DNA of 64,000 bases from Candidatus Aminicenantes bacterium (GTDB lineage Bacteria > Acidobacteriota > Aminicenantia > Aminicenantales > UBA4085), in contig PLMN01000012.1 of assembly GCA_003141555.1 (NCBI GenBank), positions 139,487 through 203,486 on the forward strand, read 5' to 3'. The translations under genes were made by a program, and so were the position numbers. Below are positions 332 through 16,457 of this stretch, in pieces (positions within the stretch are counted from its first letter, which is position 1; every line of letters starts with the position of its first letter). Below the pieces are notes generated by a model. The model had not been told where the DNA came from. It saw nothing but the letters and a program-made list of their open reading frames with translations, and did no database searches.

Positions 332-400
332 GCGGGGCCTCCTTGAAAAACCTATTATGAATTATGGTGACAGGTATGGCAATACCAAAATAGGAATCAG

Positions 401-632
401 TGACAGTAACCTGATTTCCGAATTCATTTTGAAATTAAACGGTGACAGTTACTCCATTTCCGAATTTATCTCCTTTATTATCAACGTGAATTCATTCTAA
501 GAATTATTCAAGATCGTCTAGGCATACTTCGATTTGATGAAATCAGATGGACTCATTAGCTGCAATAAGGAAATCAGGTTGCTGGCTCGAATTCAAAGTC
601 GGGGAAATGCGGAAATCAGGTTACTGTCACCG
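401..632. repeat. AT-rich MITE-like element or operator array bounded by 21-bp perfect inverted repeats (GTGACAGTAACCTGATTTCCG)
   Basis: 401-421 is the exact reverse complement of 612-632. Degenerate internal copies lie at 441-467 and 569-594. GC content is far below the flanks. Confidence 0.4.
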
Positions 633-661
633 ATTTTAAGTAGTAGAATAGAGATCCGGAT

Positions 662-2212
662 ATGCGAACGATAATCCTATCGGTGATCTTTATCGTTGCC
701 CTATCGTGGGCGTGCGCGCCGGCGCCGCCCGTTGCCACCGGCTCCGCGCCCGAAATCTCGCTCAAGCTCGACGCGGCGCAGGCTCAAGTCGCCCGTGGCT
801 GCTATGTCGGCTTCAAGAACGCGCTCCGCCTGTACCAGGAGCTCTACGCCCAGCCCGCCCTGCGATCGCGCGTCGCCTCGCCTTACCTCAGCGCGGTCCT
901 GCTGATGATGATTCGCGAGCGCGAGGTCGGGATCCTCGACTTGGCGCAATACCCCAAGGCCGCGGCCATCGTCCGCGAGAACCCGTCGCTCGGCTCTCTC
1001 CTGCCGCTTTTCGACGTCGCCGACGCGCTTCCCATGCGCACGCGCGGAATCATGCAGGACATCAATCCGATCGCCGCAAAACGGCTGACCGACGACATCC
1101 TCGCCCCGGCCCGGGCCGATCTTCGGACCAAAGCCCCCCTGAACGACTACTACGCCTACCTTTATGTGGCGCTCTTCACGGGGTATGGATACTATCCCAC
1201 GCCCGAGGACGATTTCATCAAGGACCTCCTGAGGCGCTTCCCGCAGTCGATCCTTATGAAATACAAGAGCGCGATTCAACCGCGCCTGAACGGCGACGCC
1301 CTCCAGGCGCTCCTCGCGGCCGAGCCGGAATTCTATGAAGCCGACTACAACCTGGGCGAGCTCGCGCTCCGCGGCCAAGATCTCCTCGAGGCCGAGCAAT
1401 GCTTTCTAAAGGCCTACGATGGCTTTCGGGAATCCCCCCAGGTGACGGTCAACCTCGGCAGCATTTATCTCGCTACCGAGGAATACGACAAGAGCCTGGA
1501 CTTCTTCGATAAAACGATTTTCCTTTCGCCCGAGTACCGCGACGCCCTGCTCGGCAAAGGCATCTGCCTCAGCTCCTTGGGCCGCTACGGCGACGCCCTG
1601 CAGCCCCTCAACCGGATCGTGGAGCTCGGATTTTACATGCTTGGAGAGAGCCATTACTGGCTGGCCTGGAACTACCACGCCCTCAAGAACGACGCCAAGG
1701 CGGAGGCCGAGATCGAGGAATCGAAGCCGCGCCTCCCCACGAACAGCGAGGTCTACGGCCTCTCCGGCACGATCGCCCTGGATCTGGGAAAGCTCGACAA
1801 GGCCGAGAACGAATTCACCGAGGCCCTGAAATACAACGGGGCGAACACCGAGGCCCTCTTCGGCCTGGGCAATCTCAACGCCCTCAAGGAAAGATGGAAG
1901 GAATCCGGCGGCTTCTATGAAAAGGCCGCTTCGGTCTTCGAGCGCAACGAGGCCGCCCTCGCCGAAAAAATCGACCAGATCCGGAAATCCGCGTTGTCGG
2001 ACGAGCGGAAGGCCAAGCTCATAGCCAAGAAAGAGCAGCAGCTGAAAATCAACCAGGCCACCAAGGCCACGGCGCTCTATAATGCCGCGGCGAGCTATTT
2101 CAATGTCGGGTCACCCGACCTCAAGGCCAAGGCCGCGGAGATGGCGACGCGTGCCGCCGCCCACCCCCAGGTCAAGGAGAAAGCCGAGGCGCTCCTGAAG
2201 AAGATCAAGTAA
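662..2212 (+). CDS. Tetratricopeptide-repeat protein with N-terminal signal peptide (possible lipoprotein)
   Basis: The N-terminus is hydrophobic and contains ...ALSWAC. TPR-like repeats are present (YNLGELALRGQDLLEAEQCFLKAY, EALFGLGNLNA). Confidence 0.6.
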   Translation: MRTIILSVIFIVALSWACAPAPPVATGSAPEISLKLDAAQAQVARGCYVGFKNALRLYQELYAQPALRSRVASPYLSAVLLMMIREREVGILDLAQYPKAAAIVRENPSLGSLLPLFDVADALPMRTRGIMQDINPIAAKRLTDDILAPARADLRTKAPLNDYYAYLYVALFTGYGYYPTPEDDFIKDLLRRFPQSILMKYKSAIQPRLNGDALQALLAAEPEFYEADYNLGELALRGQDLLEAEQCFLKAYDGFRESPQVTVNLGSIYLATEEYDKSLDFFDKTIFLSPEYRDALLGKGICLSSLGRYGDALQPLNRIVELGFYMLGESHYWLAWNYHALKNDAKAEAEIEESKPRLPTNSEVYGLSGTIALDLGKLDKAENEFTEALKYNGANTEALFGLGNLNALKERWKESGGFYEKAASVFERNEAALAEKIDQIRKSALSDERKAKLIAKKEQQLKINQATKATALYNAAASYFNVGSPDLKAKAAEMATRAAAHPQVKEKAEALLKKIK

Positions 2213-2292
2213 AAAGCCCCCATTTTTTTCTTTCCTAAACACCCGTCCCCGTTCCGGCGTATCATTAGACGAGAACGGAATCCGCGGATCCG

Positions 2293-2838
2293 ATGGACGA
2301 CAACGAAATCGTAGCGGCCTGCCTGCGGGGCGAGAAGGAGGCTTTCCGTCGGATCATGGAAACGCACAGCGGACCGGCTCTGGCCCTGGCACTCAACATT
2401 CTGGGAAACCGCCAGGACGCCGAGGACGTTTGCCAGGAGGCGTTCGTCCAAGCGTACAAGAACCTGGCCCGCTTCGATGGACGAGCGCATTTCCGAACCT
2501 GGCTTCTAACCATCGTCTATCGGCGCTCCCTCGATCAATTGAAGCGGAAGAAGCGTTTCCGGATCGCCGCCGAAAGAGCCGGGCGCGAAATTTCCCCGGC
2601 TTCACGGGCCGGCGGCGATCCGCCAGCCGGCGTTGGTGGATTTTTGCTGCCGGATGAATGCCTCAGGCGCCTGAGCCCGAAGGAGCGGACAGTCCTTTGT
2701 TTATGGACGGATGAAGATCTCTCCGCGGTCGAAATCGCCGCTGTGCTCGGATGCGCCGCCTCGACCGCCCGGGTCACGCTCTTCAACGCGCGGCGGAAGC
2801 TCAAATCTTCCTTGGAGAAAGCCCATGCGGCATCATAG
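2293..2838 (+). CDS. ECF (RpoE-like) sigma-70 family sigma factor
   Basis: Region 2 reads ...DAEDVCQEAFVQAYKNLARFDGRAHFRTWLLTIVYRRSLD. Region 4 has the HTH ...LSAVEIAAVLGCAASTARVTLFNARRKL. Confidence 0.85.
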   Translation: MDDNEIVAACLRGEKEAFRRIMETHSGPALALALNILGNRQDAEDVCQEAFVQAYKNLARFDGRAHFRTWLLTIVYRRSLDQLKRKKRFRIAAERAGREISPASRAGGDPPAGVGGFLLPDECLRRLSPKERTVLCLWTDEDLSAVEIAAVLGCAASTARVTLFNARRKLKSSLEKAHAAS

Positions 2839-3316
2839 CTGGATCAATTTCCTCCTTCGAATCCTGCCGTTCGCAGCCTGGAAAGATGCCCTGATCCGCG
2901 GCCACGTCGAGCGCTGCCCGGAGTGCGGCCGTCGGCTGGTCACGGCCGAGGAGGCGCGGCGGGCGATTGTCCGAACGGAGAGCGTGGGCAATACGGACCG
3001 GCTGCAGCGGGAGATCGCGCTAACAATAGCGGGAATCGCGCCCGCGCCGGCCCCGACACAAGAGAGATCGACCTCCGCCCTCGCGCGTCCCTTGCGCTGG
3101 GCCGCGGCGGGCGCCGGGCTGATCACGGCCGCTTTCGCGACCGCCGCACTCGTATTCTTTTTCCGGCCGGCGCCGCCTTCGGGGGCCGCCGAGGCGAACG
3201 AGGCCGATCAGTTTCAGATCAATTATGCGATGATCGCGGACGAGCCCGCTCAAACATACATTTTCAAGCCCCATGACTCGGATGTCGTCATCATCTGGGC
3301 GGGGAAAACACATTGA
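2825..3316 (+). CDS. Zinc-finger anti-sigma factor (single transmembrane helix)
   Basis: The ATG at 2825 overlaps the end of the sigma gene. An HVERCPECGRRL (HxxxCxxC) motif is present. A TM segment (AAAGAGLITAAFATAALVFFF) follows. Confidence 0.55.
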   Translation: MRHHSWINFLLRILPFAAWKDALIRGHVERCPECGRRLVTAEEARRAIVRTESVGNTDRLQREIALTIAGIAPAPAPTQERSTSALARPLRWAAAGAGLITAAFATAALVFFFRPAPPSGAAEANEADQFQINYAMIADEPAQTYIFKPHDSDVVIIWAGKTH

Positions 3317-3336
3317 GTGGTCATAGGAGGGAAATC

Positions 3337-4584
3337 ATGACTAAGAGAGGGATCCTTTTATTGGTATCCTTGCTTCTCGTTCTAGGGACGGCGGTTCTCG
3401 CCTCGGCTCAAGCCAAGCCGCCGGCTGACGATTCTTGGACGATGAAAATGCGTGTCTACGAAGTCCCCGGTAAGGGAAGCGGGACACCTGTTAAATCCGT
3501 CACGTCGTCCTATTTAAATTACAAGCTGACAGCCACCATCAAGACCGAGTACGACCTGGCCGAGGAGATGAAGCAGATCCAGAAGACGTTCAACTACGCC
3601 GATGTCAAGCTTCTGACCGAGGCGGACTTCGCCTGGAAGCGGAACGATCGCGAGCGGGCTTTCCACATCTTCCGGCTGGACGGGCACGAATATGTCGTCC
3701 TGATCACCCCCATCGACGTCGTCCGCCGGCTGACTTTCCGGCTCGAAGTCCTCGAGCAGGGCGAAAAATCAAAGGTCAACCTATTTGATACGGAATTCAC
3801 CATCCCCGAGAAGAATATCGCTGTCTTCGGCTTCGAAGATTCGAAGGGCGGCGTTTATTTTCTGTCCTTCCGCGTTACGGGCTGGGCCCCGACACTCCCG
3901 GGTGTGATCGTCGAGAGCCGGCCGTTTCCTGAAGGCGTCGTCGCCGGCGGGACTGTGGGCGGCGTCCTGGGCGAAGGCCCCGTCCGCGCCGTAGGCGAGA
4001 TCAAGCCGCCGCGGCTTCTCAAGCAGGTCGATCCGGTTTATCCAGAGATTGCCCGCGTGGCTCAAGTCGAAGGTGTCGTCATCCTCGAGGCTATGACCGA
4101 TATCTATGGCCGTGTTTCGAACGTGAGGATCCTGCGCTCGATCCCGCTCCTCGACCAGGCGGCGATCGATTCTGTCCGGCAGTGGGTGTATGAGCCGTTC
4201 ATGCTCGAAGGCAAGCCGCACGGCGTCATCTTCACCGTCACGGTCAGGTTCGCGCTGGACGGCGGCCAGGGCAAGCCTGCGCCGCGGAAGGACGGCGAGC
4301 CGCTTAAGATCACGGGCGATGTCAAAGGCCCGAAGCTGATCAAGCAGGTCGACCCGATCTATCCCGAGATCGCGCGGCAATCGCAGGTCGAAGGCGTGGT
4401 CATACTCGAGACTACGACCGATATTTACGGCCGCGTCCAGAGCGTGAAGGTCCTGCGCTCGATCCCCCTCCTCGACCAGGCGGCGATCGACGCCGTCCGG
4501 CAATGGGTCTATGAGCCTCCGCTTATCGACGGCAAGCCTATCTCGGTGACGTTCACCGTGATGGTGAGCTTTAAATTGAAATAG
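3337..4584 (+). CDS. Secreted protein with two tandem TonB C-terminal domains
   Basis: The start MTKRGILLL is preceded by AGGAGGG, and a signal peptide is present. Two ~100-aa repeats (KPPRLLKQVDPVYPEIA...WVYEP and KGPKLIKQVDPIYPEIA...WVYEP) match the TonB_C fold signature. Confidence 0.65.
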   Translation: MTKRGILLLVSLLLVLGTAVLASAQAKPPADDSWTMKMRVYEVPGKGSGTPVKSVTSSYLNYKLTATIKTEYDLAEEMKQIQKTFNYADVKLLTEADFAWKRNDRERAFHIFRLDGHEYVVLITPIDVVRRLTFRLEVLEQGEKSKVNLFDTEFTIPEKNIAVFGFEDSKGGVYFLSFRVTGWAPTLPGVIVESRPFPEGVVAGGTVGGVLGEGPVRAVGEIKPPRLLKQVDPVYPEIARVAQVEGVVILEAMTDIYGRVSNVRILRSIPLLDQAAIDSVRQWVYEPFMLEGKPHGVIFTVTVRFALDGGQGKPAPRKDGEPLKITGDVKGPKLIKQVDPIYPEIARQSQVEGVVILETTTDIYGRVQSVKVLRSIPLLDQAAIDAVRQWVYEPPLIDGKPISVTFTVMVSFKLK

Positions 4585-4593
4585 GGGAAAAAC

Positions 4594-4632
4594 GGGACGG
4601 TTCTATTTTCTTCGGATAACGGAACCGTCCCC
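4594..4632. terminator. Bidirectional intrinsic terminator hairpin between convergent genes
   Basis: GGGACGGTTC...GAACCGTCCC forms a perfect 10-bp stem with a T-rich flank. It lies between the stop at 4584 (+) and the stop at 4649 (-). Confidence 0.5.
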
Positions 4633-4648
4633 TTTCTTATCTTTTGCC

Positions 4649-5650
4649 TTACTTCTGTACTTCGGCCTTCGCTGGCGGCGTCGTCTTCGAGTAATCGTAC
4701 TCCGATCCCAATACGCTGTGGGGGATGGAGTAGATGACCATGAGCAATACGGCCGCGGCGACCGTCCAGGTGCGAGCCTGCCGTCCCTTGCGCATCAGGT
4801 AGAGGACCCCGATCCAGAGGACGAGGGCGATGAGCGTCTTGTTGTCCGTCAGGTCGAATCCGATCGGAATGCCCGACCAGAAAACGCCGAAGCTGTACTT
4901 CTGAACGATCGGCCCGAGGACGAACCCGCCCAGGAAGAGCATGACCGCCGCCCCCTTGGCCCAGGAACGATGGTCGAAATCGAGCGGGAGAGCGGCCAGC
5001 AGGCTTCCGAGGCCGATGGCGACGGGGATGCAAAGCCAGAGCAGGTTCGTGCCCATAATCTTTGGGATTCCCACGATCTTGAGGATCGCATAGGCGGCCC
5101 CGATCCCGATCACGAACAGGAGGACACCCGGCAGGAGCCTGAATTTCGGCCATTCCTTGGCCTTGCCAAAGGCGGCCAGGCCGGCCAGCGTCGAGAAGAG
5201 CATGGCCAGGAACATGACGATCACGTGGGGGATGAGGATCCAGGATGGGACCACGCCCTTGAACCGGATGACGACGGGCGTGTCGCCGTTGAGAGCCGCC
5301 TCCTCGCCGTCCTGGACGAGAACCACCCGGTAGGCGAGCTTTCCGGCCGCGGGCTGTTTGGGAAGGCTGCCCGCCAGGCCGCCCTGCTTGTGCTCCATCG
5401 GGACCTTCGTCCAGGGGGCCTGGGTCTTATAGCGCATGTATTCGATATAGCCCTCGAGCCCGCCCGTCCCTCGAACCATGATTTCGCAGTCCGCGGCGTT
5501 CTCCGCGCTGCGGGGCAGGCGCGCTTTGACCACCTTGCCGCCGATCGTCGCCTGGCCGCCGGCGGGATACGTCGGTCCCGTCAGGCGCTGGTAGACGGCC
5601 GCGCCGAGGGTGATGAGGACGGCCAGGATCCAAAGCACGAGTCTCTTCAT
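4649..5650 (-). CDS. Hypothetical polytopic membrane protein with a periplasmic N-terminal domain
   Basis: A signal or TM segment is followed by a ~130-aa soluble region and about 6 hydrophobic helices. No family was recognised. Confidence 0.5.
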   Translation of the reverse strand: MKRLVLWILAVLITLGAAVYQRLTGPTYPAGGQATIGGKVVKARLPRSAENAADCEIMVRGTGGLEGYIEYMRYKTQAPWTKVPMEHKQGGLAGSLPKQPAAGKLAYRVVLVQDGEEAALNGDTPVVIRFKGVVPSWILIPHVIVMFLAMLFSTLAGLAAFGKAKEWPKFRLLPGVLLFVIGIGAAYAILKIVGIPKIMGTNLLWLCIPVAIGLGSLLAALPLDFDHRSWAKGAAVMLFLGGFVLGPIVQKYSFGVFWSGIPIGFDLTDNKTLIALVLWIGVLYLMRKGRQARTWTVAAAVLLMVIYSIPHSVLGSEYDYSKTTPPAKAEVQK

Positions 5651-5714: not shown

Positions 5715-6440
5715 TCAGTCCTTGATCGTGACCGCTCCCATGATCGCCGCGCCCTTGACGTAGAACGTGGCCTTGACTTCGGCGTCGGGCACGGCGGGAT
5801 GCTTATCGTCGAATCCGCCCAGGATCGGCGTGCCGTGCATCACCACGCGCCAATCGCGCGGGACGAAGATATCCACGGCGCCCATGATGGCCGTGGCGTC
5901 GAGCGTCGCCTTCCCCCCGTCGAGGCCCGCGCCCCGGAAATCGAGCTCGAGGCCGCCCATGATCGCCGTCACCCGCCCGCCGCGGAAATTCTGGGATTCG
6001 ATCCGGCGCTTCATCCCGCCGAGAAGGCAGGAGACGTCGATATCGGAATCGTGGATCTCCGGAAATTTGCCCGCATCCCCGCCGCCGCCCCCGGCCCGCC
6101 GGAATACGCCGCGGAACAGGATCCACAGGCCGACCAGGATGATCAGGACCGGCCACATGTATTCCCAGACGTCGTAGGCGAGAAGGTCGAGCGAATTCAG
6201 GAGGAAGAGGCCGCCGAGGACGATGAAGAACAGGCCCGCCCCCGGCCTCCGGAAGCCGTTCCCGATCAGGATGGAGACGCCCAGGATGATGATGATCACG
6301 GGCCAGTACGTCCCGATCAGGGTCCCGAAATCCAGCCCGCCGATCCGGTCGAGCAGGAAAAGGACGCCGAAGACGACCAGAATAAGCCCCCAGAAAATGC
6401 CGCCCTGGTGGTGGTGGTGATAATGTCTTTCTTCGGACAT
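5715..6440 (-). CDS. LiaF-like / DUF2154 (toastrack) membrane protein with a His-rich N-terminus
   Basis: The start MSEERHYHHHHQGG at 6440 is preceded by AAGGAGG. TM helices are followed by a C-terminal Gly-rich repeat domain (GGMKRRIESQNFRGGRVTAIMGGLELDFRGAGLDGGKATLDATAIMGAVDIFV). Confidence 0.5.
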   Translation of the reverse strand: MSEERHYHHHHQGGIFWGLILVVFGVLFLLDRIGGLDFGTLIGTYWPVIIIILGVSILIGNGFRRPGAGLFFIVLGGLFLLNSLDLLAYDVWEYMWPVLIILVGLWILFRGVFRRAGGGGGDAGKFPEIHDSDIDVSCLLGGMKRRIESQNFRGGRVTAIMGGLELDFRGAGLDGGKATLDATAIMGAVDIFVPRDWRVVMHGTPILGGFDDKHPAVPDAEVKATFYVKGAAIMGAVTIKD

Positions 6441-6516
6441 GCGATCCTCCTTCATGACGCGGACGCGCGTCCTATATACCATATATACGGGGCCGAGGCG
6501 AATAGGTTGCGGCCCC

Positions 6517-6602
6517 GAAATCGGTGACACGAAATCGGTGACATGACCCAATTCTCTTAATTTGGGATCGTGTCACCGATTTCCTGCCGCGTCACCGATT
6601 TC
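6517..6602. repeat. Palindromic array of four copies of GAAATCGGTGACA (two direct, then two inverted)
   Basis: Copies lie at 6517-6529, 6531-6543, 6571-6583 (rc) and 6590-6602 (rc). A related copy is at 625-637. Confidence 0.45.
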
Positions 6603-6608
6603 CGCGCG

Positions 6609-7397
6609 CTACAAGCGGGCGATGTCCATCCCCCCGCTGACCTCGAGGATGAGCCCCGTCGAATAGGGAAACGCGCCCCGGGCCAGGGCCGCGACGGCCT
6701 TGCCGACGTCCTCCGGGAAGCCCCATCGTTTCTGTGGAAGGAATCCCGCGGCGATCAAGGCGTCGTACTTTTCGCGCACGGCGGTCGTCATATCCGTCCG
6801 GATAATGCCCGGCCTGATCTCGTAGACGTTGATTCCGTACTCGGCCAGCCGATCGGCGTAGAGCCGGGCGGCCATGCTCAGGCCGGCCTTGGAAATGCAG
6901 TACTCGGCCCGCGACGTCGAGGAGACGCGGGCCGACGTCGAGGTGATAAAGACGATGGCCGGCTTCAGGTCCGGGGCCGGCGCCTGCTCGATCATGACCC
7001 GGGCTGCCTTCTGGGTGAGGAAAAATGCGCCCCGCAGGTTGATCCTCATGAGGCGGTCGAAGCTTTCGGGCGTCGTCTCCAGGACGTCCCGGCGCTCCGC
7101 CGGCGCGACGCCCGCGTTATTCACCAGGAGGTCGAGCCGGCCGTATCTCTCCCGGACGGCGGCGAGCAGCCCGGCGTGGGCTTCGAGCGCGGCGATATCG
7201 GCCGCGAGGGGCAGGAATTCCCCGCCGCGCTTTTCCACGGCCGCCTTCACCTCGAACAGGCCGTCCCCCGCGTTCGCGGGATCGAAGACGATGTCGCAGC
7301 CGGCCAGGTCGAAGCCTGCTCCGGCCAGCTCCAGGGCGATGCCGCGGCCGATGCCGCGCCCCGCCCCCGTGACGAGCGCTGCCGGTTTGTGGTGCAT
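6609..7397 (-). CDS. Short-chain dehydrogenase/reductase (SDR) family oxidoreductase
   Basis: TGAGRGIGRGIA Rossmann motif. NNAG motif. The catalytic S...YxxxK region reads YCISKAGL. The start MHHKPAAL has a GAGGAGG RBS. Confidence 0.8.
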   Translation of the reverse strand: MHHKPAALVTGAGRGIGRGIALELAGAGFDLAGCDIVFDPANAGDGLFEVKAAVEKRGGEFLPLAADIAALEAHAGLLAAVRERYGRLDLLVNNAGVAPAERRDVLETTPESFDRLMRINLRGAFFLTQKAARVMIEQAPAPDLKPAIVFITSTSARVSSTSRAEYCISKAGLSMAARLYADRLAEYGINVYEIRPGIIRTDMTTAVREKYDALIAAGFLPQKRWGFPEDVGKAVAALARGAFPYSTGLILEVSGGMDIARL

Positions 7398-7414: not shown

Positions 7415-9418
7415 TCAGCGAATGACCCGGTCGTTCCGGAAGTCGTCCCAGACGTTCTCGAACCAGGCTTCGCCCGTCGGGATGGGCCGGACGGCGGTCC
7501 AGGCCGACTTGGGTTTGCCTCTCCCATCGAGCGCGATCTCCAGGATCCCGTCGTGGACGACGGACCCGGGAGAGGCGAGGGAGAACGTCCATTCGTCGCC
7601 GAGGCCCGGGCAAGGCGCCGCGCCGGACGGATCGATCACGAGATACGAGCCGCGGCTTGCCCCACCGCGGTATAGATATTCTTTGATCGCTTCGAGATAA
7701 ACGGCCTGGGTCAGGCAAAGATCGAGGGCCTTGAACGCCCCGGCCAGCCCGGCGGCCGATTCCGCCCGCAGGCCTTTCTTCAACCGGGCGAGCTGCCGCC
7801 AGGCGTTCGACGTCTCCCGGCCGATCGTCTTCGGGTCGCGGATTTCGGCGCCCTGCCGGGACATGCGCTCCCGGAGCTCCTCGAGGGCCGATGCTTCCGT
7901 CGTGGCGCCGGCCGCCTTCCGCTCCAGCATGGCCAGAGCCAGGAGGATCTTTTCCCGAATCCGGGCGCCCGCCGTCCGCAAAAACTCGGATACCGGGGGC
8001 GGATCGTCCCGGTAGCGCGCGGCGATGAACATCGCCGCCCGGGCGCTTCCGACCTGGCCGGCGTTCAAGGCCGAGCCTCCCGGTCGATAGACCCCGTGCG
8101 TCCCGCTGACCTCACCCACGGGGAAGAGATTTCTGATGTTCGACTCCCACCAAATGTTTCCTGCGAGGCCGCCGTTGTTGTGCTGGGCGCAGACCGCGAT
8201 TTCGAGCGGCTCGGCCGAGAGGTCGATGCCGTGACGGCGATATATTTCGACGGCGGGCGGGTTCATTTTGAGGAGCCGATCGATCGGCAAGGGGAGGAGG
8301 GCGCCCGATTTTTCGAGGTAGGTCCGCGCTTCGGGGGCCAGGGCGTCGAAACTGAAACTGCCGGCTGCTCCCCTCGGGTTCCGGCGGAAATCGAGCCAGA
8401 CGCGCCGGCCGAGGACGACGGTTTCCCGGTGGACGAGGATGTCGATGAGCGACGAGCCGCAGCCGGCGACCTTTCGGGGGTCAAAGGGCCATTGGTAGCC
8501 TTTAAAGAAGATGGCCGTCGTCAGCCGTCCCAAATCGGGAAAGAACGGGTTGAGAAATTCACGCTCGTCCCCGCCGTTGGAATCGGTGGAGACGTATCTC
8601 GGCACGGCCTGCTGATAGCTGCCGGAGAGGTTCCAACGGAACTTCAGCGAAGCGATCCCGAATTGGGATTCGGTCAGGTTCCGGCCGGCCGCGCCGATCT
8701 CGAAGGCCAGTCCATGCGATCCGGTCTGGCTCTCGGGATAGACCGAGGCCTCATAGATGCCCGCGGGCCCGCCCGTGCCCAGGATGATGTTGGCCGCGTT
8801 GAAGAGGACGAAGGCGGGCCGCCGACCCCGGCTTCGGCGCGCGTCGAGGGCGAGCGCTCCGATCACTTTTTTCCCGGCGCCGCGGCCGGCGGTGAGCAAG
8901 GCGATCACGGGATGGCCGTCGAAGACCCGGATTCGCTTCTTCCGCAGCTCGAAGGTCAGGGCCCGGCACATCATCCGCGACGTCAGCGGCCCGGCCGACG
9001 TGGCCCTCCGCCGCGAATCGTGGTCGGTCTTGTAGCCGACGTAGCCACCGTAACGGTCGTGAGGGAAGGGGACGCCGAGCGCCGCGAGGCGAAGGAAGGC
9101 CGCGGACGAGCCCAAGGCCTCGCAGAGGGCGATGTCGCCGTGCATGCAGCCGCCCCGGAACAAGTCCCCGGCCATTTCGAGCGGCGAGTCCGGCGACCCG
9201 CCGGCGAGCGACAGCTTGTAATAGGTCTGCTTGTCCGAGCCCGCATTGCGCGAGGTCCCGCCCTCGAAATCCTCCGTGACGAGGGCGATGTCGCGTTGCC
9301 CCCGGTCGTGGAGCGCCACGGCCGCGTTGAGCGAGGCGGCGCCGCTGCCGATGACGAGCGTGTTCAGGGAGTGGATCGGGATTCGAAGCCCCTCGATGAC
9401 GGCCCGTCCGTCGCGCAT
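7415..9418 (-). CDS. FAD-binding oxidoreductase (fumarate reductase / succinate dehydrogenase flavoprotein-like fold)
   Basis: N-terminal dinucleotide-binding motif VIGSGAASL. Internal HNNGGL-type active-site region. 667 aa. Confidence 0.6.
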   Translation of the reverse strand: MRDGRAVIEGLRIPIHSLNTLVIGSGAASLNAAVALHDRGQRDIALVTEDFEGGTSRNAGSDKQTYYKLSLAGGSPDSPLEMAGDLFRGGCMHGDIALCEALGSSAAFLRLAALGVPFPHDRYGGYVGYKTDHDSRRRATSAGPLTSRMMCRALTFELRKKRIRVFDGHPVIALLTAGRGAGKKVIGALALDARRSRGRRPAFVLFNAANIILGTGGPAGIYEASVYPESQTGSHGLAFEIGAAGRNLTESQFGIASLKFRWNLSGSYQQAVPRYVSTDSNGGDEREFLNPFFPDLGRLTTAIFFKGYQWPFDPRKVAGCGSSLIDILVHRETVVLGRRVWLDFRRNPRGAAGSFSFDALAPEARTYLEKSGALLPLPIDRLLKMNPPAVEIYRRHGIDLSAEPLEIAVCAQHNNGGLAGNIWWESNIRNLFPVGEVSGTHGVYRPGGSALNAGQVGSARAAMFIAARYRDDPPPVSEFLRTAGARIREKILLALAMLERKAAGATTEASALEELRERMSRQGAEIRDPKTIGRETSNAWRQLARLKKGLRAESAAGLAGAFKALDLCLTQAVYLEAIKEYLYRGGASRGSYLVIDPSGAAPCPGLGDEWTFSLASPGSVVHDGILEIALDGRGKPKSAWTAVRPIPTGEAWFENVWDDFRNDRVIR

Positions 9419-13089: not shown

Positions 13090-13450
13090 GGGCGAGGGGG
13101 GAGAGGGCCGTCGGCACGCCGGTTTCCCCGGCGCGGAAACCGGCTCGGGTTCCGGCTCGCCGCCAGCGCCGCTTCGCGTCGCTGGTCCATGCCGGCTCGC
13201 CTCCACACGGCCTCCTTGCCCTCTCCCCCCTCGCCCTGCCCGCGGTCTTCTAGGCAAGTCCAAGGGTGATCGCCGGCCGCGCAGGGTCATCCCCAAGGCC
13301 CGCATAGCGGAGGGGGGGCCCCCCGGCGAAGCAGGGGGGGAACCGACGGGACTGGTTCCCCAGCGGGCCGGGGGATGCCCTGCGGAAGGCCGGCTGAAAC
13401 TCGGGTTTAGCGGGCGGGGAAGCCGGCGTGCCGACGGTCCTTTCCCCCCG
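13090..13450. repeat. GC-rich structured region with nested inverted repeats (possible cis-regulatory RNA or palindromic element)
   Basis: GGCGAGGGGGGAGAGGGC (13091-13108) pairs with GCCCTCTCCCCCCTCGCC (13219-13236). Internal hairpin CCGGTTTCC...GGAAACCGG. GCCGTCGGCACGCCGG pairs with CCGGCGTGCCGACGG roughly 320 nt apart. Hairpin GGGGAACC...GGTTCCCC. Confidence 0.3.
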
Positions 13451-13488: not shown

Positions 13489-13529
13489 CGAGGGAACTTT
13501 TGTGATGACACGTCTTGGGAGGAGGCCTC

Positions 13530-16457
13530 ATGCGTAAACCCCTGTCGCTTTTGCGTTGGACCTGCGTTTTCCTGATGATCGCTCTTTGGCCGCTGACCCG
13601 GGCGTCGGGGCAGGCGACGGGCAAGAAACCCATCACCTACGATGCATACGCCGGGTGGCGCTCGATCCAGGGCACCCAGCTCAGCCGCGACGGCATCTGG
13701 CTGGCCTATGCTCTGGTCGCCCAGGAAGGCGACGGCGAGCTCGTCGTCCGCAACCTGAAGAACGACAAGGAACACCGGCATCCGCGGGGCACGTCGCCGG
13801 TCATCACCTTCGACGGGAAATTCGCCGTGTTCACCATCGTCCCGCCCCAGGACGAAGTGGACAAGGCCAAGAAGGACAAGAAGAAGCCCGAGGAGATGCC
13901 CAAAAACGGCCTTGGCATCATGAATATCGCTACCGGCGAGGTCTCGACGGTCGAACGGGTAAAGAGCTTCAAAGTCGCCGATGAATCGGGCGCCTATGTA
14001 GCCTATCTTATGGAGCCCCCGCTCAAGGCGCCGGCAGATAAGGAGGCCGCGGTCAAGCCGGAGCCGGCGGCCAAGACCCTGCCCGCCAAGGAACCCGCGG
14101 CCAAGGACGAGGCCAAGAAGAAGAAGGAAAAGAAGCACGAGCCGGGCAACGACCTGTTCGTCCGGGAGCTGGCCACAGGGACCTTGACCGCGATTAAAGA
14201 GGCCACCGACTACGCCTGGTCGAAGAACGGGGCGCACTTGGCCGTGGCCGTGATGTCCAAGAAGCCCGAGGACGACGGCCTCTGCCTGTTCAGCGCCAAG
14301 GAGCCGCAGAAGGGCGCCGTTTCGCTGATGAAGGGCCAGGGGACTTATAAATCGATCGCCTTCGACGAGAAAGGGGCGCAGCTGGCCTTCGTGAGCGAGC
14401 GCGACGAATGGAAGAACGACGCTTCGGCCTTCAAGCTCTATTATTGGACCGAGGGGACGCCGGCCGCGGTCGAGATCGCGTCCGGCGCGACCAAGGGCAT
14501 GCCCGCCGGCATGGCCGTGGGCGAGAACGGGCGGACGAGCTTCGCCAAGGACGGGAGCAAACTTTTCTTCGGATACGCGCCCGCTCCCAAGGCCGAGCCC
14601 GAGGACGCGCCGGAGCCGGTGAAGGTCGACATCTGGACCTGGAAGGACCCCGAGTTCCAGCCGGCGCAGAAGGTCCAGGCGGACGAGGAGAAGAAGCGGA
14701 GCTTCCAGGCCGTCATTCACCTCAAGGAGAAAAAGCTCGTTCCGCTGGCCGGTCCCGATCTGCCGAACGTGATCTTGTCCGAAGAGGCGAAGCTCGCCCT
14801 GGGCACGTCGGAAATCCCGTACCGTCAGCTCGTCTCCTGGGACCAGAGCTATGATGATGTCTACCTTGTCAGTCTCGCGGACGGGACGCGCAAGAAGATC
14901 CTGGAGAAGTCGCCGAATTCGGTCACGATTTCGCCGGGGGCGAATTACCTCCTCTACTATGTGGATCAGGACCGGAGCTGGTACTCCTACCGCGTCCTCG
15001 ATGGCAAGACCTTCAACCTGACGGCCAAGCTCGGCGTTCGGTTCGAGAACGAAGAGCACGACACGCCGGACGATCCCCGCCCTTACGGCTCCGCCGGGTG
15101 GACCGAGGGCGACAAGACCGTGCTCCTGTACGATCGTTATGACATCTGGGAAGTCAAGCCCGACGGCTCCGGCGGCCGGAACGTTACGAACGGCGTCGGG
15201 CGGAAAAACGCCCTGACGCTCCGATATGCGCGGCTCGACCGCGAGGAGCGGGCCATCCCGACCAAGTCGTCCCTCTGGCTCATGGCCACGGACGAGAAGA
15301 CAAAAGCCTCGGGCTATTATCGGATGACCCTGTCCGCCACGGGCGATCCGGTCAAGGTTGCCATGCTCGATAAGCGGTTCGGGGGCCTGCAAAAAGCCAA
15401 GAATGCCGAGACATTCGTGTTCACCCTGTCCCGCTTCGAGGAATTCCCCGACCTGTGGGTGAGCGGTCCGGGGCTGACCGATATGAAAAAGGTGAGCGAC
15501 GCCAACCCGCAGCAGGCCCAATATATTTGGGGGAAGTCCGAGCTCATCCACTACGTCAACGACGACGGCCTCACCCTGGAAGCGCTCCTGATCAAGCCCG
15601 AGAACTTCGATCCCTCGAAGAAGTACCCCCTGATGGTCAACATCTACGAGAAGATGGCCTCCGGGCTGCACAGCTATGCCACCCCGGCGCCCGGGACGAG
15701 CATCAACATCGCCCGCTATGTCAGCAACGGCTACGTCATCCTCCAGCCGGACATTGTTTACGAGATCGGCTATCCGGGCTCGAGCGCCCTGAAGTGCGTC
15801 CTGCCGGCCGTCCAGAAGATTATGGGTGAAGGCTACATCGACCCGAAGCGGATCGGCATCCAGGGCCACAGCTGGGGCGGCTATCAGATCACCTACATGA
15901 TCACCCAGACCGACATCTTCGCCGCCGTCGAGGCGGGCGCCTCGGTCTCGAACATGACCAGCGCCTACGGTGGGATCCGGTGGGGGGCGGGAGTGTCCCG
16001 GGCGTTCCAGTACGAAAAGACGCAGAGCCGGATCGGCGCGCCGCTCTGGATGCGGGCCCTGCAGTTCATCGAGAATTCGCCCCTGTTCTGGGTCGAGCGG
16101 GTCAAGACGCCGTATTTGACGATCCACAACGATGAAGACGACGCGGTTCCCTGGTATCAGGGGATCGAGTTCTTCTCGGCCCTGCGCCACCTGGGCAAGG
16201 AAGCTTACATGTTCGTCTACAACGGCGAAAAGCACGGCCTGCGCGATCGGGAGAACCAGAAGAACTGGACTGTCCACATGGATGAGTTCTTCGACCACTA
16301 CCTGAAAGGCGGGCCGCTTCCGTCCTGGATGGACAAGGGCGTACCGTACCTCGAAAAGGGCAAGCGGGACGTCACGCCGCTTTTCAAGAAAGAGACGAAG
16401 AAGTCGTCGGGCGGCTCTCCGGAGGACGGCGATAAGCGCGATCAGCCGGGACGTTGA
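13530..16457 (+). CDS. S9 family serine peptidase (prolyl oligopeptidase/dipeptidyl peptidase-like) with N-terminal beta-propeller
   Basis: Signal peptide. GHSWGGYQ nucleophile elbow. The C-terminal catalytic domain carries the H of the triad (GEKHGL). GGGAGGAGG RBS. Confidence 0.8.
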   Translation: MRKPLSLLRWTCVFLMIALWPLTRASGQATGKKPITYDAYAGWRSIQGTQLSRDGIWLAYALVAQEGDGELVVRNLKNDKEHRHPRGTSPVITFDGKFAVFTIVPPQDEVDKAKKDKKKPEEMPKNGLGIMNIATGEVSTVERVKSFKVADESGAYVAYLMEPPLKAPADKEAAVKPEPAAKTLPAKEPAAKDEAKKKKEKKHEPGNDLFVRELATGTLTAIKEATDYAWSKNGAHLAVAVMSKKPEDDGLCLFSAKEPQKGAVSLMKGQGTYKSIAFDEKGAQLAFVSERDEWKNDASAFKLYYWTEGTPAAVEIASGATKGMPAGMAVGENGRTSFAKDGSKLFFGYAPAPKAEPEDAPEPVKVDIWTWKDPEFQPAQKVQADEEKKRSFQAVIHLKEKKLVPLAGPDLPNVILSEEAKLALGTSEIPYRQLVSWDQSYDDVYLVSLADGTRKKILEKSPNSVTISPGANYLLYYVDQDRSWYSYRVLDGKTFNLTAKLGVRFENEEHDTPDDPRPYGSAGWTEGDKTVLLYDRYDIWEVKPDGSGGRNVTNGVGRKNALTLRYARLDREERAIPTKSSLWLMATDEKTKASGYYRMTLSATGDPVKVAMLDKRFGGLQKAKNAETFVFTLSRFEEFPDLWVSGPGLTDMKKVSDANPQQAQYIWGKSELIHYVNDDGLTLEALLIKPENFDPSKKYPLMVNIYEKMASGLHSYATPAPGTSINIARYVSNGYVILQPDIVYEIGYPGSSALKCVLPAVQKIMGEGYIDPKRIGIQGHSWGGYQITYMITQTDIFAAVEAGASVSNMTSAYGGIRWGAGVSRAFQYEKTQSRIGAPLWMRALQFIENSPLFWVERVKTPYLTIHNDEDDAVPWYQGIEFFSALRHLGKEAYMFVYNGEKHGLRDRENQKNWTVHMDEFFDHYLKGGPLPSWMDKGVPYLEKGKRDVTPLFKKETKKSSGGSPEDGDKRDQPGR

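Follow-up and report, generated by a model that had tools for sequence, protein, structure and literature searches.

The palindromic array that lies between a short-chain dehydrogenase (SDR) gene and a LiaF-like gene, in the 64-kb stretch of DNA analysed here (the window), is most probably one copy of a dispersed intergenic hairpin repeat of Aminicenantes-type bacteria, non-autonomous and resembling REP, REPIN, BIME or MITE elements; we give this reading a probability of about 0.8. A first-pass annotation of the window had proposed an operator set, a long terminator or a REP-type element, and the last of these is the one supported, since the same nested palindrome was recovered on at least 67 metagenome contigs, where it lies between unrelated housekeeping genes.

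The array in the window

The array had been described as four copies of a 13-mer forming a higher-order palindrome of approximately 86 bp around a partially palindromic spacer of 27 nt, and our analysis agreed with this description. The outer left (GAAATCGGTGACA, 6517..6529, plus strand), the inner left (GAAATCGGTGACA, 6531..6543, plus strand) and the inner right arm unit (inverted GAAATCGGTGACA, 6571..6583, minus strand) were exact matches, and the outer right unit (inverted, GAAATCGGTGACG, 6590..6602, minus strand) had 1 mismatch to GAAATCGGTGACA. The spacer at 6544..6570 is a stem-loop, TGACCCAATTCTCTTAATTTGGGATCG, that is a few bases off the master sequence of the family (...CCCAATTCTCTTGAATTGGG...). 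The whole element (6516..6603) is thus a nested structure with two direct arms, an inner hairpin and two inverted arms, written here as '>><<', a class that was also seen at 17 other family loci. Its family core, consisting of an arm, the inner stem CCCAATT, the loop, AATTTGGG and a second arm, was placed by alignment and nhmmer at 6530..6585 on the plus strand; with a profile of 59 cores this segment gave E = 6.5e-19 and was the sole such match in 64 kb.

Both the frequency of the motif in the window and the folding of the array stood out against shuffled sequence. When up to 2 mismatches were allowed, GAAATCGGTGACA matched at 8 positions of the window, where 1.47 were expected; none of 100 shuffled sequences reached 8. 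The 10-mer AATCGGTGAC occurred 5 times and GGTGACA 6 times in 64 kb, all of them within the intergenic regions 340-660 and 6517-6602. The array was the strongest local inverted repeat of the whole window. As RNA, the minus strand of 6440-6612 had a predicted folding energy of -82.5 kcal/mol (z = -6.1 against shuffles), far more stable than shuffled sequence, and as DNA the two strands of the array (96 nt) gave -31.2 and -35.2 kcal/mol (z = -8.6 and -9.3). The presence of only one full copy within the 64-kb window would be in agreement with a chance or assembly artefact, that is, with a local tandem or inverted duplication without wider meaning. However, the shuffle statistics of the 13-mer and the presence of the element in independent assemblies from many samples speak against this explanation, whose probability is negligible and which is already refuted by the metagenome dispersal and the comparison of orthologous sites described below.

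The minus strand encodes both neighbours of the array, namely the SDR gene at 6609-7397, with its stop codon at 6609-6611 (Pfam adh_short, 2.9e-42), and the LiaF-like gene at 5715-6440 (LiaF-TM, 3.6e-20). The element begins 5 nt after the SDR stop codon and ends 76 nt before the ATG of the LiaF-like gene, in accordance with the position first given for it. An exact look-up of the LiaF-like protein sequence of the window returned no record. Its N-terminus (6405-6440, minus strand), MSEERHYHHHHQGG, is a short His-rich tail preceding the LiaF transmembrane domain. Upstream of the LiaF-like gene there is a -10-like box, GTATATATGGTATATAGG (6471..6488, minus strand), 28 nt from the element, which probably belongs to the LiaF-like promoter. 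It is kept in relatives with or without the element, where it reads TATGGTATATA or TATGATATAAT, the latter being the form of the element-free relative L008. A promoter and terminator scan of 6300-6750 gave 0 sites. Between the element and the proposed promoter, an inverted-repeat search and RNA folding identified an adjacent GC-rich stem-loop, CGGGGCCG...CGGCCCCG (6488..6517), which is flanking sequence outside the repeat family and is conserved in part in L203.

The surrounding gene order is conserved. Two genes lie upstream of the SDR gene, one for a phosphofructokinase (PFK) and one for an FAD-binding oxidoreductase (FAD); the order PFK, FAD oxidoreductase, SDR, LiaF-like and hypothetical gene, with TonB_C, anti-sigma, ECF sigma and TPR genes on the opposite strand, is maintained down to relatives whose LiaF-like proteins are about 66% identical to that of the window. 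Elsewhere in this cluster, the TonB_C gene (3313-4584, plus strand) and the hypothetical gene (4649-5650, minus strand) converge on an inverted repeat with 21-nt arms, AAACGGGACGGTTCTATTTTC / GATAACGGAACCGTCCCCTTT, at 4590-4635, which looks like a bidirectional terminator. A two-gene insertion absent from the window, coding for a 212-aa ORF and an AbiEii-family toxin, separates the ECF sigma and TPR genes of L129 (12187-13628), a contig whose LiaF-like protein is 85% identical to that of the window.

Structure of the repeat family

The family core is a near-perfect hairpin of 55 nt in which two 14-nt arms, GGAAWTCGGTGACA, surround the inner stem CCCAATTC-TCTT-GAATTGGG. The sides of the hairpin measure 25 and 26 nt, and it has a 4-nt loop (TCTT), one bulged nucleotide and a conserved T·G wobble. 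The same sequence, GGAATTCGGTGACATGACCCAATTCTCTTGAATTGGGATCGTGTCACCGATTTCC, was found in 28 of the 59 cores and was taken as the master copy. Outside the core there are 0-5 extra arm units, those to the left being direct and those to the right inverted; each of them measures about 14-22 nt (GGAAWTCGGTGACAYGA plus 2-6 nt), and in places, such as L162 and L177, they are plainly tandem. Every locus had the same architecture, in which n direct arms precede m inverted ones, with '><' (14 loci), '>><<' (17) and '>>><<<' (5) among the classes and up to '>>>>><<', so that the arrangement in the window is a typical one. A rule of alternating A-type and B-type arms was considered and dropped, as it was a tendency only.

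Pairing within the core is maintained in spite of sequence change. Over 27 distinct core variants, 96.6% of the cells were paired and 5 base pairs of the core had changes on both sides, which was matched by none of 500 shuffles, and shifting the register by 1-3 columns made the pairing collapse to 21-54%. No Rfam model matched at its gathering score, and far below threshold there were just generic long-hairpin (miRNA-precursor) matches.

Dispersal and genomic context

JGI metagenome contigs were scanned with the exact pattern GGAAWTCGGTGACA-N(0-30)-TGTCACCGAWTTC, which has 24 specified bases and two W. Matches were found on 67 contigs, against about 1 expected by chance, 17 of the contigs coming from one sample (Ga0315286). 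The flanks differed at nearly all 67, and flanking DNA was common to 13 contig pairs only. The neighbours of these independent copies included genes for an aldo-keto reductase, MTHFR, a helicase, an M19 dipeptidase, a MacB-type permease, an rRNA methylase, an M28 peptidase and a radical SAM enzyme. According to a codon-usage gene finder the copies are intergenic; this gene finder is crude and over-extends starts, and the apparent overlaps between genes and elements are mostly artefacts. Among the 39 copies that could be cleanly classified, 23 lay between co-directional, 11 between divergent and 5 between convergent genes. Where the 3'-end of a gene faced the element, the gap was usually 0-30 nt, as compared with 5 nt in the window. 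The strand of the element relative to transcription had a weak bias (19 vs 10 and 24 vs 15) that was not significant.

Beyond the copy by which each contig had been recruited in the scan, 4 further elements were present in 368 kb, and the window has 1 in 64 kb. Extrapolation of this contig density suggests about 50 copies per 4-Mb genome.

Allelic states at the SDR-LiaF site and at other orthologous sites

The orthologous SDR-LiaF spacers were read in the sense direction of the two genes. In L008 and L009, whose LiaF-like proteins are approximately 66% identical to that of the window, the spacer has 48 bp and no motif, and in L007 (also about 66%) it has 100 bp and no motif. L200 and L202 (82%) have the 55-nt core alone, immediately after TAGCCTC, and L203 (79%), otherwise the nearest to the window, has the core alone with AAATC-type arms. 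L129-L132 (85%) carry the core and one extra left unit. Finally, the window has the core with one extra arm per side, and on the gene-sense (minus) strand its core is inverted relative to those of L129, L200 and L203. The site therefore offers an allelic series that goes from empty to core only, to core with one arm and to core with two arms.

This series shows that a copy entered the spacer in an ancestor of the window organism and of those relatives with 79-85% identical LiaF-like proteins. Remodelling in place, by inversion of the core and gain of one arm per side, then produced the four-copy palindrome. All arms of a given genome belong to one variant (AAATC for the window and L203, AATTC for L129 and L200), which points to concerted change within a genome. 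Two further contigs from close relatives, L201 (1-20) and L204 (1-10), end in or beside the element, as expected of a repeat that breaks short-read assemblies.

Similar changes were observed at other loci. Six contig pairs with flanks 80-89% identical had the element at the same place, with cores 95-100% identical, and the core was more conserved than neighbouring coding DNA; among the differences was a compensatory change from A-T to G-C (L133 vs L155). Arm number varied between orthologues ('>>>>><<' in L162 vs '><<' in L191, and '>>><<' in L133 vs '><' in L155), the core was flipped in L159 vs L193, and the element site of L189 was occupied by unrelated filler in L184. Upstream of a TetR gene, master-type copies were present in L145 and L179, L205 and L206 had a decayed copy and L207-L209 had none; the neighbouring 8-amino-7-oxononanoate synthase of L205/L206 is 86% identical to that of L145. 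Since copies are uniform in some lineages and decaying in others, a family dependent on a trans-acting activity fits better than function acquired site by site.

The region 340-660 and the operator reading

The array had also been linked to an AT-rich region at 340-660, an intergenic stretch of about 320 bp from which a minus-strand gene starting at 331 and the TPR-ECF sigma operon diverge. A near-identical copy of the motif was indeed present at 625-637 on the minus strand (AAAATCGGTGACA, 1 mismatch), and GTGACAG cores were located at 367, 400 and 442 on the plus strand and at 624 on the minus strand, close to where they had been reported. The link itself was borne out in part: the region does contain arm-like half-sites, in three abutting imperfect palindromes, and it lacks the family core. 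Two of these are the arm-only palindromes GGAATCAGTGACAG|TAACCTGATTTCC (393..419), possibly a related or decayed unit, and GGAAATCAGGTTAC|TGTCACCGATTTT (611..637), which contains the copy at 625-637 and reached only E = 0.98 with nhmmer. All three (393-419, 436-462 and 611-637) had the half-site and no core, and they were not found elsewhere; they may plausibly be related to the family.

These half-sites bear on the proposal that the array is an operator, bound by a transcription factor (dimeric or tetrameric) that regulates the LiaF-like envelope-stress gene and might also act on the TPR-ECF sigma operon (662-4584). Layouts combining direct and inverted half-sites are typical of operators, and the array has such a layout, is positioned upstream of the LiaF-like promoter, and has arm-like counterparts at 340-660, a divergent promoter region that flanks the conserved 6-kb gene cluster on its other side. 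Nevertheless, the same structure, with its loop and inner stem conserved, recurs in all orientation classes and beside dozens of housekeeping genes of unrelated kinds. The more distant relatives L007-L009 (about 66% identity in the LiaF-like protein) lack it at the orthologous promoter, although gene order and -10 box are kept there, and close relatives have 2, 3 or 4 arms in varying orientation. In addition, the spacer orthologous to 340-660 in the relative with the 85% identical LiaF-like protein (L129, 15224-15360, 137 bp) carries a different, perfect hairpin, GGAGACACAATACCTATTTCC-13 nt-GGAAATAGGTATTGTGTCTCC. We therefore consider a local regulon of this kind very improbable and largely refuted.

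Other repeats were also noticed. An arm similar to that of the L129 spacer hairpin adjoins the element in L153. A second dispersed conserved segment, ...GCCCGCATAGCGGAGGGGGG...GGGGGGAACCGACGGGACTGGTTCCCCAGCGGGCCGGGGG..., is found in the window at 13284-13383, upstream of a 980-aa Peptidase_S9 gene (13515-16457, plus strand), and also in L152 (1290-1399), L156 (6937-7017), L190 (238-286) and L139 (4123-4186); it adjoins an arm/core element in L156 and L190. This segment had no Rfam match and may represent either a leader or a further family of repeats.

Terminator and other host functions

The proposal of a classical long terminator was not supported, as the stem is followed on the sense strand by GGGGCC with no T/U tract, and 11 of the 39 classified copies lie between divergent gene starts. 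A broader possibility is that the elements are a family of cis-acting sequences selected by the host, serving as stabilisers of RNA 3'-ends, terminators without a U-tract, insulators or sites for a nucleoid or architectural protein, with their multiplication being secondary. The high conservation of the core where flanks have diverged could have this meaning, and the compensatory changes that preserve the stem, the very stable predicted fold and the short gaps to gene 3'-ends are also what it would predict. Moreover, REP elements are known to be co-opted for such roles (PMC3337134). On the other hand, the T-tract is lacking, the 11 copies placed between two gene starts have no 3'-end to protect, and the orientation bias is not significant. 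The copy in L205 and L206 is decaying, the SDR-LiaF site is empty in some relatives, and amplification or homogenisation accounts for 28 identical copies better than selection acting separately on every site. This reading thus seems unlikely to us.

Under the preferred reading of a dispersed repeat, the arms would be the recognition module of a putative trans-acting transposase or recombinase, or else they would be homogenised by gene conversion; either would explain the many identical copies. The element in the window is probably transcribed at the 3'-end of the PFK-FAD-SDR operon, and its transcript would form a stem longer than 40 bp that could stabilise this 3'-end or partly insulate the LiaF-like promoter. 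Such a local effect would presumably be a side effect and not the reason why the sequence exists.

Taxonomic range

The named homologues of the LiaF-like protein of the window belong to Candidatus Aminicenantes or Acidobacteriota. An exact core was found in L108, a metagenome-assembled genome (MAG) of Ca. Aminicenantes, and the named homologues of the gene neighbouring the element in L145 are from Aminicenantes, with 73-75% identity. One cluster-mate, at 90% identity, of a protein from L166 is labelled Ca. Limnocylindrales, which may be due to misbinning or mean that the host range is broader. No element was present in 41 kb from two more distant Aminicenantes genomes (L007 and L209).

A looser pattern, TCGGTGACA-N(0-30)-TGTCACCGAW, was used in order to scan genome contigs. 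It gave more than 119 matches, mostly due to chance and in unrelated taxa, and it recruited L108 as well as L027, L041 and L073 (Gemmatimonadales) and L110 (Inquilinus). The same arms in the same direct-then-inverted architecture, with a different inner stem, GTGCACTCATTC, were observed in the three Gemmatimonadales contigs and in the metagenome contig L170. L027 (Gemmatimonadaceae, CAVUDW010000002.1) had four elements in 8 kb (430-527, 2312-2355, 5040-5095 and 5153-5208). Two elements with the same arms in this architecture, and other inner stems, were present in L110, an assembly of Inquilinus (Alphaproteobacteria), at 2167-2262 and 2878-2967, and a short form was found on the lower-GC contigs L147, L148 and L188. 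The neighbours of these elements were again housekeeping genes.

It is possible, although we propose it only tentatively, that the arm GGAAWTCGGTGACA is the conserved recognition module of a modular superfamily of nested-hairpin elements that extends across phyla. If so, there would be a putative widespread enzyme that reads a non-palindromic arm instead of a REP hairpin and a mode of growth in which arm units are added symmetrically, and these elements would form a class of their own, separate from both REPINs and classical MITEs.

Search for a mobilising partner

No ORF with the HUH/Y motif of RAYTs (REP-associated tyrosine transposases) was detected by regular expression in about 500 kb of fetched loci, and there was no transposase among 29 neighbour genes scanned. 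Viral contigs gave 0 matches to the element, and plasmids none or a chance-level number; no parent IS with the same ends was found in the fetched loci, viral contigs or plasmids. The arm-bracketed gene of L145 was examined as an autonomous partner and rejected, being an aldo-keto reductase, and so were the genes between paired elements in L133, L134, L137 and L139, which are housekeeping genes. A 179-aa ORF beside the short variant in L188 had no Pfam match. Comparisons of filled and empty sites gave no consistent signal of a target-site duplication and no precise empty site, so that transposition is something we infer; one possible flanking repeat of 6 bp (TCTTCC) was seen, at L145:6628-6770 only.

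In some copies an additional inverted repeat, CCAAAATTGCCGATAG...CTATCGGCAATTTTGG, surrounds the element, and the resulting composite measures about 100-280 bp and has a right-hand linker that is conserved (L135:6445-6706; L145:6628-6770 and 8410-8541; L169:2567-2762 and 7494-7705; L190:299-397; L195:1818-1933). The copy in the window lacks this enclosure. The true terminal repeat of a longer, parental element may be CCAAAATTGCCGATAG. Other palindromic repeats, with GGGGACACAGAAC...GTTCTGTGTCCCC and cattgcgag...cgaagcaatc units, were noted in similar intergenic spots (L146, reverse complement of 1900-2425, and L110:2980-3050), and the site of the arm/core element in L195 is occupied by one of these repeats in L146. 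Some spacers therefore appear to be hot spots at which repeats of several families accumulate.

Significance and comparison with known repeats

For the window, these results remove a tempting regulatory story, as the palindrome is best seen as a passenger repeat whose effects on the SDR operon and the LiaF-like gene would be incidental. The family documents an interspersed repeat in an uncultured lineage, with a clear master, remodelling in place through gain or loss of arms and inversion of the core, and an arm motif common to other phyla. Its repeats break metagenome assemblies, are usable as lineage markers and point to a putative mobilising or homogenising activity. In the literature, the motif strings matched unrelated primers only, and a search for Aminicenantes together with palindromic repeats led to CRISPR mentions only.

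REPs and REPINs are mobilised by RAYT tyrosine transposases (Bertels & Rainey; PMC3337134, PMC3116915), and REPIN spacers are all different between copies (PMC3337134). Our family resembles REPINs in that a short extragenic repeat forms inverted doublets that fold into a long hairpin, in its vertical inheritance at orthologous sites, in its dominant master and probably in having tens of copies or more (about 50 per genome here, by extrapolation). REPINs, too, can have more complex higher-order arrangements and long palindromes, and a target-site duplication is not expected for them. It differs from them because the unit GGAAWTCGGTGACA is not self-complementary and just the doublet pairs, whereas a REP is itself an imperfect palindrome. 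In addition, 28 of 59 copies have one and the same inner stem-loop, in contrast to the variable REPIN spacer; the arm units form direct tandem runs on each side, and the fetched loci and neighbours contained no RAYT gene.

The BIMEs (bacterial interspersed mosaic elements) of enterobacteria are mosaic intergenic clusters of variable length, made up of a short repeat and linker motifs and often located just after stop codons. The present elements share with them the variable-length intergenic clustering of a short repeat and the frequent position just after a stop codon, but the REP units of BIMEs alternate, while here all left units are direct and all right units inverted, so that a single nested palindrome results. 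MITEs of bacteria, for example Correia/NEMIS, ERIC and RUP, are small, dispersed intergenic elements with terminal inverted symmetry that can fold as RNA and are polymorphic for presence or absence. The inverted arms would correspond to their terminal inverted repeats, and small size, intergenic dispersal, RNA folding and presence/absence polymorphism are common to both; nevertheless, the length of our elements varies by whole arm units, and they had neither a consistent target-site duplication nor a detected parent IS with matching ends. With intrinsic (Rho-independent) terminators the element shares a stable stem-loop right after a stop codon, but its stem is far longer, it lacks the T-tract and many copies are in divergent promoter regions.

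The non-palindromic unit and the conserved inner region set the family apart from REPINs, and of the MITE hallmarks neither a target-site duplication nor a parent IS was detected in the loci compared and the sequences searched. It is apparently an undescribed interspersed repeat of the REP/REPIN/MITE-like kind, which we place among the bacterial interspersed palindromic repeats and count neither as a REPIN nor as a MITE proper.
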